A DNA stretch of 64,000 bases from Candidatus Uhrbacteria bacterium (GTDB lineage: Bacteria > Patescibacteriota > Patescibacteriia > UBA9934 > GWF2-40-263). The stretch lies in contig JACPHT010000006.1 of NCBI GenBank assembly GCA_016188475.1, positions 2,330-66,329 of the forward strand. The letters run 5' to 3'. Of the stretch, positions 17,636 to 55,149 are shown one piece after another. The position numbers and the translations under genes were made by a program. The first letter of the stretch is position 1, and every line of letters begins with the position of its first letter. Below the pieces are notes generated by a model. The model was given only the letters and a program-made list of their open reading frames with translations, ran no database searches and was not told where the DNA came from.

Positions 17636-18060
17636 AATTTTTTAAACAGATATATACGTTTCAGCATTAAAATAATTCCAAGAAGATTAAAGAGCAATCC
17701 AACCCAGAAGAGTTCAATTTGATACTGTGTAATAAACGTAACAATTCCAGCAATGCCAAGTATCGGCAACAAATTAACCAAATAATGAGCGCAACAAGAT
17801 ATCATTGAGGCGGTTGATGTGGCGCCGGTTACACCTAAAATTTTCCCAGATCCGCGACCTGATTTCACGAGATTTTTTAGATATACATAAAGTCCGACTT
17901 GAATTCCAAATCCACCGGTGAGGCTCACGATAAAATACCAAAAATCTGAAAACTGGACTTGGGCAAAATTCCATCCGGAAACAAGTGTCAGGATGCCAAA
18001 ATATATGCCAAGTAAAATCAATCCCGCGAGCGCTCCGTAAAAAATTGGCTTTATAGACAT
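17632..18060 (-). CDS. Membrane protein with CCAH motif
   Basis: About 4 TMs, SMISCCAH; current ATG lies in the MITE terminal repeat. Confidence 0.7.
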   Translation of the reverse strand: MSIKPIFYGALAGLILLGIYFGILTLVSGWNFAQVQFSDFWYFIVSLTGGFGIQVGLYVYLKNLVKSGRGSGKILGVTGATSTASMISCCAHYLVNLLPILGIAGIVTFITQYQIELFWVGLLFNLLGIILMLKRIYLFKKL

Positions 18061-18232
18061 CACATTTCAAAATCTGACTTAGAACCCAAGAAAAATTTAT
18101 GAATGGCGCAGTTTTGGAATTTAGAAAAACCGAAAATGTATCTATAGACACATTGAGGATTTTTCTGAGTGAAAAACAAGCCAGTCATAATTTTAATGGG
18201 TTATTGAGTAAGATTTTGAAATGTGATGTCTA
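18054..18232. mobile_element. 179-bp MITE with 22-bp TIRs and TA target duplication (IS630/Tc1-type signature)
   Basis: TAGACATCACATTTCAAAATCT (18054-18075) and its exact reverse complement (18211-18232), flanked by TA on both sides. Confidence 0.85.
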
Positions 18233-18240
18233 TATCATGT

Positions 18241-22477: not shown

Positions 22478-25400
22478 ATGATTGAACGTTTTTCAATTAT
22501 TTTTCTCAGATTTTCAGGAATTATTTTTAATCTCAAAGGCCGATTGATTCAAGCTGAAGGCTGGCATAGAGCTCTTCCGATTGCCGTTGAGTTGATCGTC
22601 GTCGAAATGATTTTTACCGTTGTATCTTTGCCATTATTTTTTATTGTTTCACCAAAGAAAATACAGGAATCCGGTTTCATTTTTCCGTCAAAAGAAAAAG
22701 AGCATTTTCATAATTTTTCTGTAAGAAGAAAAATTACGCTAACAACAACTTTTGGCGCGGCCTTGATCTACGCGATTAAGATTATTTTTGTTGGCATCGT
22801 GTCTTTATATTTATTCGGCGCGACCCCGCTTCTTGCCGCAATTCAAAACTGGGATTTTAGCACAGCAGGCGATTACACTTATGATTCATCAAAAATTGAA
22901 GTGACAGGTGGAGTGGCACAACTTAAAAATTTAGGCTCAACAACCAGCGGGGCAACAACAAATCCTTCGTTTGATTCTAATTCAACAGGTTGGACATATG
23001 CTGATTGGGATCAAGGTGGTGGCGAAGTAGATGTTAAGGGAGATCGTCAGACCACAGGAGGAAATCCTAACGGATGGTTAAGAATCAATGTTCCTTCAGG
23101 ATCTGATGATGAATTGGGGGGATATTGGCGTCAATCTTTTATAACGACTGTTGCTGATCCGACAACGACAGTGAGTTTTGATTGGAAAGTTACGGCGTTT
23201 GATTCGTCTCCAGGGCCAATTACGTTCAAACTTTTTGCGTTTGTTGATACTGGTTCAGGTGTTCCTGTTATAGGAAATGAGGTTTGGACGTCTGGTGAAA
23301 TAACCGGAACAAGCGGGTGGGCTTCTGTGAGCAATCTCGATGTGTCGTCAAAGGTTACAGCCGCTGGAACGTACTATCTGAAGATTGCCACTTGGGTTGA
23401 AACTCCAGGGTCTGCTACTGGTCCGTTTACTTTGGGTTATGACAATGTTCAATTGAATTGGACAAAAACAACAGTAAGTTACGATACAAGCAATCCAACA
23501 ATCACTCCGAACAGTTCTCTTACGATGTCAAAAACAATAAGTTGGAACGGGTTTACTGAAACTGCGACAAAAAATGGAGGGGAAATTTATTATCAACTTT
23601 CTGATGACGATGGTTCTACTTGGAAATATTGGAATGGCTCTATTTGGACAACAGCAGGCGCTACCAACTACAACATTGCAACAGAAGTTAATACAAACAT
23701 CGGCACATTCCCTACAACCAACAACAAAATAAAGTGGAAAGCATTTTTATCAAGCAGTGGAACTCAACAAGTGATTTTAGATAATATCGCGATCGATTAC
23801 ACTGAAAACAGTTTGCCAGTAATTAACAACTTGTCTGCAAGTCAAGGAACAAGCACGGGCCGCGTTTATATCACTTATGATTTGCAGGACAACGATAGCG
23901 ATCCGGAAAGTTTAACAGCATATGAATACTCTTTGACAGGCGCTTTTTCTGGAGAGCAAGTTACAATGACAGCCGCAACAGGAGATGGGTTGCATAGCGG
24001 TGTGACTGGTCTGACATCGTCTCCAGTTGGAATTTCACACACTTTTGTTTGGGACGCATTTTCACAACTCGGAGCAGTTTATAATACAACTGTTTATGTT
24101 CGTTTGCGTGCAAATGACGGGGTTGGAAACGGAGCTTACGCAACTTCAACTGCGTTTACGGTCGATTATGTAAATCCTGTTGTGTCAAACGTTGTTGCGT
24201 TGCAGACTGCTGGTTCAACAAATGTTCAGATCACTTATGATTTAACTGACAATACATCAGACAATCTGCTTGTTGAAATTTATATTTCAGATGATGGCGG
24301 CGCAACTTGGGCTGTAACAGACACGTCTGTTTCAGGAAGTGTTGGGTCAAGTCAAACAACTGGAGTTGGGAAAACAATCACATGGAATGCCGGAGTTGAT
24401 TTTGATGAACAAAATCAAGCTGACATTCAAGTTAGAGTTCGCGCGAAAGACAAGTGGCAAAATCAGGGGAACAATGTAGCCTCAGCAAATTTTTCGCTTG
24501 ATACTTTGAATCCAGTTGTTCTCACAACTTCCAATCTCCAATCTCAACCAAACGCAGGAGACACAACTGTTTTGATTGGAGGGTCGTTTACTGAAACAAA
24601 TCCAAACACCAATGATTTTTATGTTGCAATAAACGGCGGAGCTTATGGTTTGGCAACTTCAGGAACTACAAACACATCTTCACCTTCAAACCAAGCAACT
24701 TCTGTCGGCTCAACACTTGACGGAAACGATTACATTTCAAAAGTTAAAATCACTCACACTGATGATTATGGTCAAACAGTTGATAATGAAAACTTTGTCA
24801 TCGCCTGTAACAACTGTTTTGGATTTGACAATAAATCCAAATGTGAGTGAAGCATCGGACGTTGAATATGCTATTGCATAAACATCGACCAATCAGTTTG
24901 TTCAAGCAAACGGAACGCTTGGAGCAAGCGCTGTTTGGGAAGTTATTGGAACATCAAGCGGACAATGGGGAAACAACACTGGAATATCTGGAAAAGTTCA
25001 TGTGAGCGGACTTACTTCTCCTGTTGCAAATTATATTTTCAAAGTTAAATCGAGAAATCCGAGCGACGCGGCGCACGCTGTTTCATCTGAATCTGCATAT
25101 TCCGCAACAGCACAAATTACAAATACTGCTCCGTCAATTTCACTTGGCTCAATTGCGCAAACTACCGATGGCACTGATTATGTAACAATAAATTATACTG
25201 GAACTGATGGGCAAGGTGACGTAAATAGTTTGACCGTTTTTGAATATTCTATAGACAACTCAACGTGGAGCACAATGACAGAAAAAACAGGAGTCGGATC
25301 GGACGGAACTTCGAATTTGGTGTTCTTGCCAAGCGGAAGCGCGCATGACTTCATGTGGGATGTCGGGACAGATCTGCCTAGTGTTGAAGATTCTACAGTG

Positions 25401-28400
25401 TATATTCGACTTCGTTCTTCAGACACATTAACGACGAGCACTTTGGTAACTTCATCGGCTTTTGAGATAGACACTGTTTTGCCTGTTGTTTCAAGTGTTT
25501 CAGCTTCACAAAATTTAGGCGCCCGCACTGTTGTATTCACATACACGCTCACTGACGCGAACAGCTCTTTGGTTGAATTGGATATATCAGAAGACGGAGG
25601 TTCAACTTGGAACGTAACAGACACATCAGTATCAGGTCATGTTGGTTCAGGAGTGACGCCTGGAAGCAAAACAATAACGTGGAATGCTGGAGCTGATTTT
25701 GATAATCAATACCAAACAGACTTGCAGGTTCGAATACGCGCGAAAGATACTTTTGGAAATCAAGGCACGAACACGTCATCATCAAATTTTACAGTTGATA
25801 CAAACGACCCTTCTGTTACAAATGTTAGTGCTGTTCAAGACAGCATGCTCGATACGTTTACATTTCATTACGACGTGAGTGAAGATGTTGGAAACGTCGC
25901 AATCGGACTTGAAATTTCAAGCAACGGAGGAACAACTTGGACAATACCAACAACAACAGTTACGGGTGATACTGGATCTGGAATTGCTCCTGGAGCAAAC
26001 AAAACAATAACTTGGAATGCGGCTGTGGATTACAACAGTCAGGAAAAAACAAACATGAAAATTCGCGTGACAGCAACGGATGGATTTAGCAATACTTCAA
26101 ACGCGAGCTCTGCAAATTTTTCACTTGACACACTTGCACCTCGTGTAACAAATGTCGGAGCATCGCAAACTCTCGGAACAACAAACATTTCAATCACATA
26201 CACTCTTGCTGATCAAAATGTGTCGCTCGTTGAAATTGATATTTCAGATGATGGCGGAGCGACTTGGGCAGTGACAGATACAAGCGTTACTGGAGATGTT
26301 GGAACTGGAGTTTCTTCAGGGAGCAAAACAATCACATGGAATGCCGGAGTTGATTTTGATGAACAAAATCAAGCTGACATTCAAGTTAGAGTTCGCGCGA
26401 AAGATGTCTATGAGCATCAAAGCGCAAATGTTGCTTCTTCAAATTTTTCGCTTGATACTTTGAATCCAGTTGTTCTTACAACTTCCAATCTCCAATCTCA
26501 ACCAAACGCCGGAGACACAACTGTTTTGATTGGAGGTTCGTTCACTGAAACAAATCCAAACACTAATGATTTTTATGTTGCGATAAACGGAGGAGCTTAT
26601 GGTTCGGCAACTTCAGGAACTACAAACACATCTTCACCTTCAAACCAAGCAACTTCTGTCGGCTCAACACTTGACGGAAACGATTACATTTCAAAAGTTA
26701 AAATCACTCACACTGATGATTATGGTCAAACAGTTGATAATGAAAAATGTGACAGTTAATAAAAACGCGGTTGAAACAGATGGTTTGGAATATGCGATTT
26801 TTGAAACAAGTCAGAATCAATATGTTCAGACAAACGGAACGCTTGGCGCGAGTGCGATTTGGCGAACAACAGCGCAGTGGGGAACAGTGACGGTAAACGG
26901 CCTTGCGAATGATTCATATACTTATCAATTTAAAGTCAAATCTCGAAACACAAGCGATGGCTCTAACGCGGCATCAAGCGAAAGCGCGCTTTCAGGAGGC
27001 GCATCGTCTGCGAATCAATCTCCAGTGATCGTGCTTGGATCAATTGCTCAAACAACAGACGGTTCGAGATACGTCACTATAAACTATACTGGATCAGACT
27101 TGGAAAGCGAAAATACGACGATTATAACAGCCGAATACTCTACGAACGGTACGACATGGAACAACATGACGGAAAAGTCTGGAGTTGGAAGCGATGGAAA
27201 AACAGGCCTTGTTTTCGTATATACAGGAACAGCGCACGATTTCATGTGGGATGTAGGAACTGATCTTGCTAACGTTGAAGACTCGACTGTTTTTATTCGC
27301 TTGCAAGCAAATGATGGAACGTCTGACGGAGGAGTTGCAACATCAAGTGCGTTTACAATTGACGCAAAAAATCCAGTGATCTCATCAGTATCAGCTGAAC
27401 AACAAAATGGTTCAAACAATGTTGTGTTCAGTTATACACTTACTGATCTTTCAAATAGTCTTGTTGAAATTGATATTTCAGACGATGGGGGAGCTACATG
27501 GAATGTCACTGATACTTCAGTCACTGGCGATATCGGCGCAGGGGTTTCACCAGGAACAGGAAAAACAATAACATGGAATCCCGGAGTTGATTTTAGCGGA
27601 CAAGAACAGTCAGATTTGCGTGTGCGAGTTCGCGCAACAGATATTTTTGGAAATGCTGGCGCAAACGCGTCGTCAGCGAATTTTTCAGTTGATACAGAAT
27701 CGCCGCGTATCACAAATGTTACAGCTTCTCAAGATTCCGGATTGAATACTGTAACAATTGGATATGATATCGAGGACGCAAATGTTTCAAATGTTGTTAT
27801 AGAAATTTCCGAAGACAACGGATTAACATGGGGAGTCGCAACAACAACTCTTTCTGGAGATGTCGGAGCCGGTATTACATCTGGAATTGGCAAAATAGTT
27901 TCGTGGAATGCGGCCGTTGATTTCCCGAATCGTGAACAATCAGGAATGATGATTCGCGTGCGCGCGACTGATTCTCACAATAATTTAAGCGGCAATGTTT
28001 TTTCACCTTCATTTTCTGTTGACACTCTTGCGCCAGTTATTTCTAGTGTTTCCGCTTCGCAAACCTTGGGTTCTGACAATGTCGTCTTTACTTACAATTT
28101 ATCTGATAGCGGTTTTGTAAATATAGAGCTTGATATTTCACAAGACAGCGGCGCTACTTGGACAGTGACGGATACGTCTGTAATAGGTGCTATAGGATCA
28201 GGACAAACAACGGGAAATGGAAAAACAATCACATGGAATGCCGGAGTTGATTACCCAGATGAAGATCGTTCAACAATGCGAGTTCGAATTCGCGGAACCG
28301 ATGGATTCAGCAATATGAGCGTGAATGTTGAATCATCTGATTTTATAATTGACACATTTGATCCAACACCAAACGTCACTTCCAATCTCCAATCTCAACC

Positions 28401-34513: not shown

Positions 34514-36706
34514 CTAAACCAGTGTTTTTGTACCCGATTTCTTTTTCATTCCTTTTAACGGTATTGTAACAAAGAATGTTGTTCCTTTTCCTTCTTCTGA
34601 TTCAAAACGGATTGTACCGCCAGTTTGATCAAGAATTCCTTTCACAAGGTACAGGCCGAGTCCGGAGCCATCCGTGTCAATCTTTCTGGCATTGTCAGCT
34701 CTGAACATTTTTGTAAAGATTTTGGAATGTTGTGTTTTTGGTATTCCGATTCCATTGTCAGAAATTATTATCAGAGCGTTTTTACCATTCTTTTTTACAT
34801 CAAAACTTATTGCTCCATTTTTTGGAGTATATTTTGTGGCATTTGAAAGAATGTTTTGAAAAATCATTATTGTAAGTTTTGGATCAACTTTAATCATCGG
34901 AAGATTTGGATCGAAAGATGTTTTTAAGGTTTGTTTTTTATTTATAATACTTTGCTTCAACTCATCAATCGCTGTGTCAGCGATTTTGCGTAGGTCACTT
35001 ATTATTGGCTCGCTTATAAACACACCAAGTTCAATTCTCGAGACGTTAAGCAGAGAATTTATCAACTCACTCATGCGTTTTGAACTTGAGTATACGTCCT
35101 TAAGATATAACAGTTGTTTTGTTGTCATTTTTCCTGCGTTTCCAGACATTAACATTTCAATAAACCAATTTATTGAAGTAAGAGGTGTTCTAAGTTGATG
35201 GCTCGCGAGCGACACGAATTCAGTTTTTGCTTTGTCAATTTGTTTTTCTAAAGTTACATCGCGCTCAACACCGACAAAAAAAATTATTTTTCCTTTGTCA
35301 TCAAAAATTGGCGTGATAATGATTTGCGCTGTATAAATTTCTCCATTTTTTCGTTTATTTTGGATTTCACCGTTAAAGACTTTCTTTTTGGTTTTAATTG
35401 TATTCCAGAGTTTTTTGTAAAAATCTTTTGGCATCAATCCCCCCCAAAGGGAACCTGATTTTTTTTCAATCGCTTCTGAAGGCTTATATCCGGTTATTTT
35501 TTCAAGTGAACGATTCGCATACAAAACAACTCCTTCAGGATCAGTGATAATGATTTGATCTGAAACGTTGTCAACAGCTAATTTGAATTTTTCAAGCTCA
35601 CGTGTTTTCACTTCGACCATCGATTCCAACTTATTTGAATATTCGAGAAGTTCTTTATTATTTTTTTCAAGAGATCTTGCCATTTGATTAAATGAATTTG
35701 CAAGTTCTTCAATCTCATCACTGGTTTTAACTTTAACTCTGTACTTATAATTACCACGTTGAATTTGTTTTGCTCCTAAAGTTAGAGAATAGATCGGATT
35801 TGTTATGAGTCTTCCCAGAAGCCAAGAAACAAAAACTATAAATAATAAAAAAATCAAACAAAAAATAAATATAACGATCCCGACCGTGTTCGCTGGCATT
35901 AACAATTCTTTTGTATCAATTTTTGTCACGATCCCCCATTTTCTTTCAGGAATATAACTCCAAACAGCAAACACTTTTACGCCTCGATAATCAATTCTTT
36001 GTCCTTGTCCGATTTTTTGTTGAACAGCATCTTGTATTGGCAAACCAACAGGATCGTTAATTTTGACTGTTTTGTTAAATGCCGCGTTTTTATCAAAAAG
36101 TAAAGGATTTATAAACGTGAGATATGTTTTATCAGGACTCAATACCGCAAGGAGCGTTTCTTCACTTCCGCCTATTCTTCCAGAACTTTGCACAACTTTA
36201 AATAAGTTTTCCGCGCTTATTTCCAACATGACTGTTCCTATAAAAGGTTCCCCGAGGTTGTTTATTGGTGCGCCTATAAGGAAATCTATTGAACCGTCTG
36301 TTTGATTTTTATAAAGATCACTTATAAAAATTTTATCTTGCGCGTTTTGTAAAGTTTGCTTTCCAAGATCAGGGAATTTTGCATTCGAAGAAAAAATAAA
36401 ATTTCCATCGCTATCTAGAATAAAAAGTTTTTTTACATCAGCATTCTTTTTAAGAAAACTCTCTGCTTTAGTATTTATTTGATCATTGAGTCTAATTTCA
36501 TCTATCAACGAAGTTGTTTTAAGTTTCCATTCATCAAAAAAGTTTTTGATTATCAGTATTTTTAGGTTTGCGGATTGTTCAAATGACCGTTCTTGTATAT
36601 TTATAAGTGTTTTGCGAAAACTCCAATTTGAAAACAAAAAAACAAATACTATCTGAATGATGGAAATCAATAAAATACTAAAAAGAATCTTTTTAAACAT
36701 ACTCAT
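34514..36706 (-). CDS. Sensor histidine kinase (Cache-like, HAMP, PAS, HisKA, HATPase)
   Basis: DEIEELANSFNQM, PAS (N.RK.GE.Y), ASHQLRTPL, NATKY, DNGIG, G.GLGL. Confidence 0.93.
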   Translation of the reverse strand: MSMFKKILFSILLISIIQIVFVFLFSNWSFRKTLINIQERSFEQSANLKILIIKNFFDEWKLKTTSLIDEIRLNDQINTKAESFLKKNADVKKLFILDSDGNFIFSSNAKFPDLGKQTLQNAQDKIFISDLYKNQTDGSIDFLIGAPINNLGEPFIGTVMLEISAENLFKVVQSSGRIGGSEETLLAVLSPDKTYLTFINPLLFDKNAAFNKTVKINDPVGLPIQDAVQQKIGQGQRIDYRGVKVFAVWSYIPERKWGIVTKIDTKELLMPANTVGIVIFIFCLIFLLFIVFVSWLLGRLITNPIYSLTLGAKQIQRGNYKYRVKVKTSDEIEELANSFNQMARSLEKNNKELLEYSNKLESMVEVKTRELEKFKLAVDNVSDQIIITDPEGVVLYANRSLEKITGYKPSEAIEKKSGSLWGGLMPKDFYKKLWNTIKTKKKVFNGEIQNKRKNGEIYTAQIIITPIFDDKGKIIFFVGVERDVTLEKQIDKAKTEFVSLASHQLRTPLTSINWFIEMLMSGNAGKMTTKQLLYLKDVYSSSKRMSELINSLLNVSRIELGVFISEPIISDLRKIADTAIDELKQSIINKKQTLKTSFDPNLPMIKVDPKLTIMIFQNILSNATKYTPKNGAISFDVKKNGKNALIIISDNGIGIPKTQHSKIFTKMFRADNARKIDTDGSGLGLYLVKGILDQTGGTIRFESEEGKGTTFFVTIPLKGMKKKSGTKTLV

Positions 36707-36757
36707 AAGATAATTATAACAAAAAAAACTTTAGAAAACAAAAAAGACCCTTGCGGG

Positions 36758-37756
36758 TCAGTTGGAGTTTTGTTTTTCAACGACCATCAGTGCGATTGTT
36801 TCTCCAATCGTGAAAGTTAGTGTTCGTTTTTCGCTGTTTTGTTTTTCGGGTCCTTGTTTTGTGGATTCTGGCCAAACATAGACATCACCATCAAGCACTA
36901 GCCTTGTATCAGACATTCTGATTATTGCCGTGCGGATTGGTTGGTTGTAACTCTTGCGCTTGATCCAGAATGGGACAAGTCCGAACCATACAAAAGGTGA
37001 GGCAAGCGCAAGGCTTCGCCAACCTCCCCAGTATGCCGCGCTGTAGTATTCGCCCATGTTTGGAATCCCCCCAAATGGCTGACACGATGCTAGCAGTTTA
37101 GGAATCGTGCTGAACGCGAACCCGACGAATGACTTTTTTGTGCAGATGGCTGTGCCAAGAATCATTTCTCCATCGACTATTTTGAGTCGTCCGTGAAGTT
37201 TGCGAATCGTGTCTGATGCAACAGAAAGTGCCGCCATTATGATGATCTGCAGAACTCTGAAAAATCCACCTTTGCCGACATTCTCATACCACTGCAGAAT
37301 ATCGCTGATAACTCCGCCAGCTACAACTGCGGCATATCGTTTTGTATTCGTGACAGAATCATGCACGCAAACTGGTTGCCAGTTTTTCCAATCGAGTTTG
37401 ATCTTGTTTGAGAAAATCCCTGCAAGATTTTTGATCGGATCTTTGCTTGGCAAACCATGGAATTTAGTCATGTAGCAGAATTGTCCGCCTCCAACAGAGA
37501 TAAGCGCTGGTCTAAGTTCTGGCTGGAGCGCCGCAATCCAGTTGAGCACGTTGTTGAATGTTCCATCGCCACCGACAACGTAAACGAAGTCGACAGTGTG
37601 TTTTTGGGAAAGAGCGTCGAGCGCGCCGATGACTTTATCAGCGCCTGAAATGTCTATGATGTGCGCGTATTTTGAAAATCTGTCGCGCACGAGCTGGCGA
37701 ATGCGACGATTCTGGCGAAGCCGTTTGGCTTCAGGGTTTACTACGATTACACGCAC
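36758..37756 (-). CDS. Diacylglycerol/lipid kinase family protein
   Basis: VVNP, GGDGT, LDGD; GAAGGAGG RBS. Confidence 0.8.
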   Translation of the reverse strand: MRVIVVNPEAKRLRQNRRIRQLVRDRFSKYAHIIDISGADKVIGALDALSQKHTVDFVYVVGGDGTFNNVLNWIAALQPELRPALISVGGGQFCYMTKFHGLPSKDPIKNLAGIFSNKIKLDWKNWQPVCVHDSVTNTKRYAAVVAGGVISDILQWYENVGKGGFFRVLQIIIMAALSVASDTIRKLHGRLKIVDGEMILGTAICTKKSFVGFAFSTIPKLLASCQPFGGIPNMGEYYSAAYWGGWRSLALASPFVWFGLVPFWIKRKSYNQPIRTAIIRMSDTRLVLDGDVYVWPESTKQGPEKQNSEKRTLTFTIGETIALMVVEKQNSN

Positions 37757-40779: not shown

Positions 40780-40973
40780 AGAGTAAAAAAGTGATGAAGT
40801 GATGGAGTAAAGGAGTTAGTTTGTAGCCCACGGCTTTTCCGGCCTAAAGGCTGGATCCGGCTCCGCCGGAAGCCGTGGCTGTGTGAAAAGATAATACTTG
40901 ATCGTTCGCTTACCGTCAAATTTAGCAAAAAGATAAGTCAATTTTATATTATTTCTCTGCTCAAATCAACAAT

Positions 40974-41134
40974 TGATCGTCCGTTTCCTCCGTTCGTCGA
41001 CATTCGCAGACGGCCAGTATAGACGTTTGGTAATCATCATCGTTTCTCGCCGTCGAGAAATAAGCCGCCGACGCTTACGTTGGTTTTCATCAACGTCCAC
41101 GGCGGCGGTCAAGAACGGAGGAACCGGACGATCA
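40974..41134. ncRNA. Structured ~160-nt element, copy A (unassigned ncRNA or repeat)
   Basis: Closing stem TGATCGTCCGTTTCCTCCGTTC/GAACGGAGGAACCGGACGATCA; homologous to 54883-55044. Confidence 0.6.
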
Positions 41135-54579: not shown

Positions 54580-54882
54580 TTGTAAGCCTCTCGCTACCAG
54601 GTAGCGAGAAGATATATTCTAATTCACCAATCACACAATTTTTTTTAGAAACAACAGATATTCGTAATCTATTATATGAGCAGTTGCATCATGTTGGAAG
54701 GAGTCGAGGAGGAGTAAAGAAGCCAACTGCTTGGCTTCGTACCTCCGAGACGGGTTGGACGATGTCTGGCTGAAAGCCAGACCGTACAACACCTACGGCG
54801 AAGAGTCCGTTGGCCCGGAGACACGGTTCGATTGTCATATACTCGTCAACCAGTCTGTTGGTTCCATATTCAAATCACATAT

Positions 54883-55044
54883 AAAATTGTTTAGACTCTC
54901 TGTTCGCCGACATCCGGAGCCGACCTGTACAAACACTTGTTAACTACGTCGATTCACGTCGGCGAGGACTAAGCCGCCGCCACTAACTCTGGTTGTCATA
55001 AACGTCCACGGCGGCGGTCAAGAACAGATAGTCTAAACGATTTT
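54883..55044. ncRNA. Structured ~160-nt element, copy B
   Basis: Closing stem AAAATTGTTTAGACTCTCTGTTC/GAACAGATAGTCTAAACGATTTT; homologous to 40974-41134. Confidence 0.6.
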
Positions 55045-55149
55045 TCCACCTTCTTGACCCTCTTTTCAAAAAACTGTACACTATCGGCGCCTTTTAAAGT
55101 ATTACGCAACGCAGAGATTGCTTCGCTTCGCTCGCAATGACATTGGTTT

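Follow-up and report, generated by a model that had tools for sequence, protein, structure and literature searches.

A Y-shaped structured repeat dispersed in two genera of Candidatus Uhrbacteria, probably a non-autonomous mobile element

A 64,000-nt stretch of a Candidatus Uhrbacteria genome (the window) carries two diverged copies of a motif of about 160 nt whose stems differ in sequence and continue to pair. What is this motif, and which of its strands is folded? An initial annotation, made from the letters of the window, proposed selection on a multi-stem RNA or single-stranded DNA structure, offered a new ncRNA, a ribozyme and a non-autonomous element as options, and left the active strand open. 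Our preferred answer, held with a confidence of roughly 0.65, is that the motif is a mobile repeat of the non-autonomous kind, and that its + strand, once folded, would be recognised at the junction by a protein supplied in trans.

Two copies in the window and their predicted fold

The window belongs to a genome of 893 kb that is 97.7% complete (G000). Its two congeners are G001 and G002 (genus g1), and the second genus that enters the analysis is g23. Both window copies are built from a closing rod, a conserved core and two arms, as follows.

40974..41134, + strand: first copy of the Y-shaped repeat (copy 1, 161 nt), flanked by a glycoside-hydrolase-like gene (+) and a 95-aa ORF (-)
40974..40995, + strand: copy 1, 5' arm of the closing rod, pairing with 41113-41134
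40996..41008, + strand: copy 1, 5' side of the conserved core, in the order 3-nt loop strand, GAC helix, junction A, TTC helix, GCA loop strand
Core helices of copy 1, + strand: GAC pairs with 41108-41110 and TTC with 41057-41059
41009..41054, + strand: copy 1, arm 2, a 6-bp covarying stem (41009-41014/41049-41054) with a 34-nt loop, mostly unpaired
41055..41064, + strand: copy 1, junction segment, with an invariant GA, the helix partner and a junction strand with TAAG at its end
41064..41106, + strand: copy 1, arm 3, a GC-rich stem (41064-41069/41101-41106) with a loop of 31 nt
41107..41134, + strand: copy 1, 3' segment, the near-invariant GGTCAAGAAC followed by the 3' arm of the closing rod
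54883..55044, + strand: copy 2 of the Y-shaped repeat, 162 nt, directly 5' of a promoter-like site of the ATP synthase operon
54883..54905, + strand: copy 2, 5' arm of the closing rod, pairing with 55022-55044
54919..54963, + strand: copy 2, arm 2, stem 54919-54924/54958-54963 with a loop of 33 nt
54973..55015, + strand: copy 2, arm 3, stem 54973-54978/55010-55015 with a loop of 31 nt

The fold predicted for the + strand starts with a 22-bp rod, followed by an internal loop (GNN opposite AA or GA), a 3-bp helix and a three-way junction. Arm 2 continues as a 3-bp helix, a GNA/GA loop and a 6-bp stem, and arm 3 as a 6-bp GC stem. In the 5' arm of the copy 1 rod, the outer part is variable in sequence and the inner GTTC is near-invariant.

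Both copies described by the initial annotation are present, and each motif that it quoted is exact. These include an identical 25-mer (41092-41116 and 55001-55025), a covarying stem (GACGGC/GCCGTC at 41009-41014/41049-41054 versus GCCGAC/GTCGGC at 54919-54924/54958-54963) and a third stem, GCCGCCG/CGGCGGC (41064-41070/41100-41106 and 54973-54979/55009-55015). We add two further short helices at the junction. The two copies are identical in 112 of 164 aligned columns, and of their 40 consensus pairs 25 are unchanged, 12 carry two-sided changes that still pair, 1 is changed on one side and 2 are broken. RNA folding of the + strand gave z scores of -8.6 (copy 1) and -5.9 (copy 2), with none of 200 shuffles equally stable. 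The minus strand folds likewise well as RNA (z -8.7 and -4.4, respectively), and with z scores of -6.8 and -5.2 for DNA, folding does not tell DNA from RNA.

The motif had been matched to no known family, a hit in Rfam being named among the results that would speak against it. This assessment holds: scanning with Rfam 15 produced no match at the gathering threshold. No match over the motif was obtained for copy 1 at E<=10, and the sole weak match overlapping copy 2, to Ms_IGR-4, is sub-threshold (24 bits against a cut-off of 55). A tRNA/tmRNA scan of the window found none. An attC-like reading was dropped because GTT and AAC stand in the opposite order to the established attC layout. Possible likenesses to twister-sister, to SRP Alu and to the ends of IS91 and IS200/605 found support in no search and were dropped as well.

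Covariation, folded strand and conserved core

Covariation was assessed in an alignment of 26 intact copies of the genus-g1 type, from which duplicates had been removed and inserted or truncated copies excluded. In this alignment 96.3% of the cells are paired and two-sided changes occur in 23 of 44 pairs; none of 500 shuffles was comparable, and slid registers likewise fell far below. A second alignment, of 10 g1 and 5 g23 copies, gave 96.0% paired cells and two-sided changes in 19 of 32 pairs. Double changes were also counted on a tree, which was built from the same columns as the tested pairs and is not equivalent to R-scape: the rod underwent 44 same-branch double changes against 11.3 expected (null maximum 21) and the inner helices 10 against 0.8 (null maximum 6). 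Both alignments and the tree counts bear out the proposal that selection acts on a multi-stem, single-strand structure.

The strand that the initial annotation had left open can be assigned. One-sided changes in the rod comprise 19 to G-U, 1 to A-C and 12 others, and this ratio of 19:1 indicates that the + strand is the one that folds. One-sided changes in the inner helices (3 G-U, 1 A-C and 5 others) are too few for a strand call.

Rates of change differ strongly along the repeat, with 5.2 changes per column on the tree in the outer rod, 3.6-3.8 in the loops and 0.74 in the core. Change in the outer rod is thus about 7 times as fast as in the core, yet its pairing and length are kept; its sequence is unrelated in several copies, and a common end sequence exists in genus g1. 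Because of this difference in rate, we suggest that the junction core, rather than the end sequence, would serve as the recognition signal. The unpaired bases of the junction are invariant across both genera, and invariant unpaired purines are found at the two internal loops and the junction.

The loops of the two arms are G-poor and fold no better than shuffles. Among 31 intact copies the arm-2 loop is 30-35 nt long, and the arm-3 loop is 31-32 nt long in 30 copies and 37 nt in one. Genus g23 retains the arm-3 loop length although its arm-3 sequences are unrelated, and altered copies can break the rule, as does a 5-nt arm-3 loop in locus L049. In g1 copies both arms share the pattern TGGT...CG...CAC.

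Small ribozymes usually combine invariant unpaired purines with variable stems and loops, and this is the pattern of the Y, with its purines at two internal loops and the junction. The Y could accordingly be a new ribozyme that cleaves or processes itself and propagates selfishly as a repeat, the invariant junction being its catalytic core. We regard this as quite improbable: no Rfam ribozyme model matches, neither pseudoknot covariation nor loop-loop covariation of the kissing-loop type was detected (permutation p = 0.59 for the latter), and a junction bound by a protein would look alike.

Occurrence, sites and gene context

The two copies noted in the window stand, but the count extends well beyond them: G000 as a whole holds 15 copies or remnants, of which 6 are intact (E < 1e-40), 7 are altered by insertions or replaced arms and 2 are right-end fragments. 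The covariance model that the initial annotation had suggested was built and searched, and it located the repeat in 5 of 73 family genomes from two genera, namely 3/3 genomes of its own genus g1 and 2/5 of g23. An order-level sample (5/151 genomes) contained no carrier beyond these five, while a class-level pattern scan (1/401) and a phylum-level sample (1/151) each recovered G000 itself; these wider searches scored few candidates per genome, and distant relatives can escape them. Viral contigs, scanned by pattern, and collections of phages and plasmids, searched with BLAST, gave no match. A metagenome scan yielded 15 loci. No description of the repeat was found in a literature search whose scope left subscription journals mostly aside, and likewise the supplements of motif surveys (PMC11109978 and similar). 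The repeat is narrowly distributed and undescribed in the literature searched.

Twenty-six copies from relatives have flanks that map to G000 (in two cases through a single flank; L018, which matches at a bare end, was left out, as was a second reading of L011). Sixteen of these map to element-free sites and 10 to occupied ones. Copy 1 is missing from the orthologous site in G001 and G002. Copy 2 is missing from the atp site of G002 and has a same-site counterpart in metagenome locus L031; its site was not found in G001. In a g23 genome (G079), the two genes flanking copy L057 abut in 4/4 congeners, where the element is absent. The Y is thus scattered between genes in two Uhrbacteria genera, and its orthologous sites are filled in some genomes and empty in others. 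The empty sites may be losses rather than sites that were never filled; the atp site of G002 retains a few bases that resemble rod ends and may be a deletion scar. A check for target-site duplications found repeats of 5, 7 and 2 nt at three sites and none clear elsewhere, in genomes that are 10-30% diverged. The ends of the element are ragged, with 5-60 nt of extra unaligned flank. Copying of the outer stem from the target site was not seen at the empty sites of L013 and L057.

At prfA, rplL, relA, miaA and atp, the element or its upstream hairpin (described below) occurs in both genera, at times in opposite orientation. These common sites suggest old, long-lived copies and not active spread. 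No site is kept in all carriers. Orthologous copies at prfA have a unique outer rod in common and differ in arm-2 type, which suggests gene conversion. Copies are often broken by other repeats. The repeat also rearranges and breaks assemblies, as at L011, L049 and L062/L065; the last two are copies in G079 that are identical over the available stretch and both lie at contig ends. Resident copies would persist, exchange their inner parts by gene conversion, be invaded by other repeats and be deleted.

Locus L011 is a fold-back palindromic copy, and positions 867-1160 of L049 form a head-to-head pair. At L006 the gene upstream of the element ends in linker sequence in place of its last ~20 codons, as compared with the orthologues in L008 and L019.

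Automated neighbour calls for 42 loci, some of them visibly wrong, gave 15 convergent, 9 tandem sense, 7 tandem antisense and 1 divergent context, and 10 with a side uncalled. The neighbouring genes are unrelated, and neither the neighbour nor its orientation is fixed. The 15 copies of G000 are placed 6 on the G-rich and 9 on the C-rich strand, with no replichore bias. Since neighbour directions are mixed and both replication strands are used, the selected strand is the element's own and neither that of a host transcript nor a replication strand. This excludes a leader RNA and speaks against template switching as the whole explanation.

Copy 2 precedes the promoter-like site of the atp operon by 9 nt, and several other copies stand before similar sites, as might be expected of a cis-regulatory leader or riboswitch of the downstream gene. 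Copy 2 is, however, upstream of the atp transcript and not within it, many sites are convergent or antisense to unrelated neighbours, and the atp promoter is intact in G002, where the element is missing. A cis-regulatory role is contradicted by the context counts, and we give it hardly any credence.

A neutral palindromic repeat, in which template switching and gene conversion produce covariation with no selection on the fold, would be in keeping with the fold-back duplication at L011, the head-to-head copies at L049 and the orthologous copies with different arm-2 types, which suggest conversion. Template switching cannot favour G-U over A-C by 19:1 on the strand of the element itself when copies lie on both replication strands, however, and in addition the short inner helices covary and the unpaired junction bases are invariant across two genera. 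This explanation is very unlikely.

Many copies extend about 170 nt further upstream, where a hairpin of 75 nt stands between a short leader and a linker, and so reach a total of about 330 nt. The upstream hairpin accompanies the Y in both genera (its g23 homologue precedes a partial copy) and is also found alone; in L006, L011 and L062 its start is inverted and lies to the right of the Y. GTAG opens the hairpin in 11 of 22 distinct copies and stands two bases earlier in two g23 copies. The Y proper has no GTAG, and the window copies have neither GTAG nor the upstream hairpin. The full unit would be one of about 330 nt, consisting of the upstream hairpin (often preceded by GTAG), the linker and the Y, with the window copies as short forms.

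The linker of some long copies contains a promoter-like TTGAGG-17-TAAGAT, read by eye. Together with a strand that is selected irrespective of host gene direction, intact loops that hold their length despite a drifting sequence and are no more structured than shuffles, and some sites that persist across genera, this match would suit a host-beneficial multi-copy ncRNA or domesticated element, the copies of which would either be transcribed as such or be released by RNase III from a longer RNA, and would bind a protein or RNAs with their two single-stranded loops. The same match is missing from the window copies and about half of the long copies, its start would fall inside the rod, and no conserved promoter was seen. 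The searches moreover failed to find the repeat in 68 of the 73 family genomes, 3/5 of those in g23 among them, no site is common to all carriers and copies are often interrupted by other repeats. We therefore consider such a host function unlikely. Among the options of the initial annotation, the non-autonomous element fits best, with its dispersed copies, filled and empty sites and lack of a fixed neighbour; the ncRNA and the ribozyme are without positive evidence.

Other repeats surround the two copies. On the 5' side of copy 2 (window 54691-54830) is a hairpin of ~85 nt, with about 30 genomic BLAST hits and an insert of ~110 nt; this hairpin replaces arms in several Y copies and has GNA/GA internal loops as in the Y. 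Short REP-like palindromes adjoin both copies (window 55114-55141 and 40824-40880), and at other places in the genome similar palindromes border genes for GIY-YIG and RAYT proteins. A separate family of ~180 nt with long terminal inverted repeats, unlike the Y in sequence, is found at window 18052-18234 and four other G000 sites, and several of its members begin and end in TATA.

Candidate mobilising enzymes and comparison with known systems

The element is non-coding, and across 73 genomes its left- and right-end patterns never flank an ORF. The IS110 recombinase (0/5 carriers; 8/73 family genomes), IS630 (DDE_3; 0/5) and TnpB (0/5) were not found in the carriers. Y1/RAYT genes were found in 2 of 5 carriers versus 52 of 73 family genomes. 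Five Y1 genes inspected in G000 and G002 are flanked by other, shorter palindromes and never by the Y; one G002 copy lies ~1 kb from a RAYT. No copy adjoins a GIY-YIG gene. Nor does any copy adjoin one of 9 reverse transcriptase (RT) matches, the best model match there (E 0.078) being a plain hairpin; a retron msr-msd or DGR RNA was rejected on this ground.

Published systems are considered here as they are described in excerpts of the cited papers. In size, in its two similar looped arms and as an orphan multi-copy unit, the Y resembles the bridge RNA of IS110 elements and the ssr9/MITEPpu9 mini-elements of ISPpu9 (PMC11208160, PMC11208158, PMC12288879). Bridge RNAs measure 150-250 nt and have two internal loops (PMC11208160), and orphan multi-copy sRNA mini-elements occur in this family (PMC12288879). 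The Y could by analogy be an orphan bridge RNA with target- and donor-binding loops, a reading to which the two large fixed-length loops and the common TGGT...CG...CAC pattern of g1 also lend themselves. The Y is instead a three-way junction inside a long rod, with loops that are terminal and without a conserved inner stem-loop. No carrier has the recombinase, and the repeat model found nothing beside the 8 family IS110 genes (best E 0.14). In 18 permutation tests on 30 copies, the loops matched their own flanks no better than those of other loci (p >= 0.25), giving no guide-target match. The bridge RNA reading is largely refuted, and we rate what is left of it as very improbable.

The closest parallel is bcr1 of Bacillus cereus, a mobile repeat of 155 bp with a cruciform fold and compensatory changes (PMC3184786). 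As described there, bcr1 resembles the Y in its length of ~155 nt, its intergenic position, a distribution that is not conserved between relatives and the lack of a gene of its own, and also in a long closing stem with two stem-loops whose fold is kept by compensatory changes; patchy sites and a compensated branched fold were both found for the Y. It differs in its 5-bp direct repeats, since the Y has no constant duplication, and, in a comparison of descriptions and not of sequence, in lacking the large unpaired loops of fixed length in which the arms of the Y end. bcr1 is transcribed (PMC3184786). Unlike REPINs (PMC3337134, PMC3733652), the Y has a three-way junction as its interior and not two inverted REPs of 20-40 nt, no RAYT gene is flanked by it, and its copies number about 5-15 and not hundreds. 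On our best reading of these excerpts, the repeat would work most like bcr1 and REPINs, but with the junction kept instead of the ends.

The Y is short (<500 nt), non-coding, multi-copy and intergenic, as are MITEs (PMC10969869), and it carries a 22-bp inverted repeat, the outer part of which is its fastest-changing region. With MITEs and the MRSC class of Narunsky et al. (PMC11109978), as excerpted, it shares a size below 500 nt, inverted ends, the lack of a transposase, multiple copies, a stable stem-loop and inconsistent orientation, and from that description it appears to fit the MRSC category. Unlike in MITEs, whose terminal inverted repeat would bind the transposase, the outer inverted repeat of the Y is its least conserved part and wholly different in some copies, the interior is conserved, and no matching IS was found among the DDE_3, IS110 and TnpB genes searched in the 5 carriers. 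Flavo-1 (RF01705) is likewise an orphan multi-copy structured motif without cis-regulatory context, according to the excerpt of PMC2864571; in none of the 5 carriers did its model match the element (its best E, 0.16, was obtained at another place). The repeat would belong among the small structured mobile repeats, as a new form.

If the Y is a non-autonomous mobile repeat, mobilisation would proceed via its folded single strand. A single-stranded DNA step handled by an HUH/Y1 (RAYT-like) transposase is then the likeliest of the candidate routes, which we put forward tentatively. Three observations suggest it, namely the GTAG tag, selection on one strand and the lack of a constant duplication, and it is weakened because Y1 was not found in three carriers. 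An RNA intermediate is possible but somewhat doubtful; the other candidates are mobilisation as a DDE-type MITE, which is unlikely, and some further mechanism. The Y might even represent a new class of selfish structured RNA (or single-stranded DNA), in which the fold itself is the working part and the invariant junction and two fixed-length loops provide either a catalytic core or the guide scaffold of a mobilising protein, spreading in minimal CPR genomes with neither conserved ends nor target duplication; we consider this conceivable, though rather doubtful.

The Y inverts the rule of MITEs: across two genera its ends turn over, whereas its branched core and the lengths of both loops are conserved, on one strand. 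If a protein reads the fold and not the ends, this would be an undescribed route of mobilisation. Being compact and rich in covariation, the repeat also lends itself to testing why RNA-like folds are kept in orphan motifs such as bcr1, Flavo-1 and the MRSC motifs. In practical terms, its model guards against misannotation of these repeats as riboswitches and accounts for some contig breaks.

Several further features were seen in passing. A motif scan of 776 ORFs picked out two that are tyrosine-recombinase-like (G000:C4 52508-53339 and C8 18116-19088), with no link to the repeat. Locus L103 (G000:C1, about 35500-37600, minus strand) encodes a retron-like RT of ~410 aa followed by about three tandem structured units of ~200 nt; this arrangement (L103/L099) is conserved in G000 and G001, and by models is unrelated to the Y. 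Two loci on G000:C10 (L096 and L100) are DGR-like by inspection, each with an RT, a small ORF on the opposite strand and template/variable-repeat-like sequence. Within the window, the segment 7231-7782 contains a Group I intron (RF00028, 7410-7733) that interrupts a tRNA-Thr(TGT) gene, with a small GIY-YIG ORF directly upstream. The window further contains a long exact duplication, starting at 24371 and at 26325; there are 455 repeated 25-mers in the window, and among the matches listed all come from this duplication.
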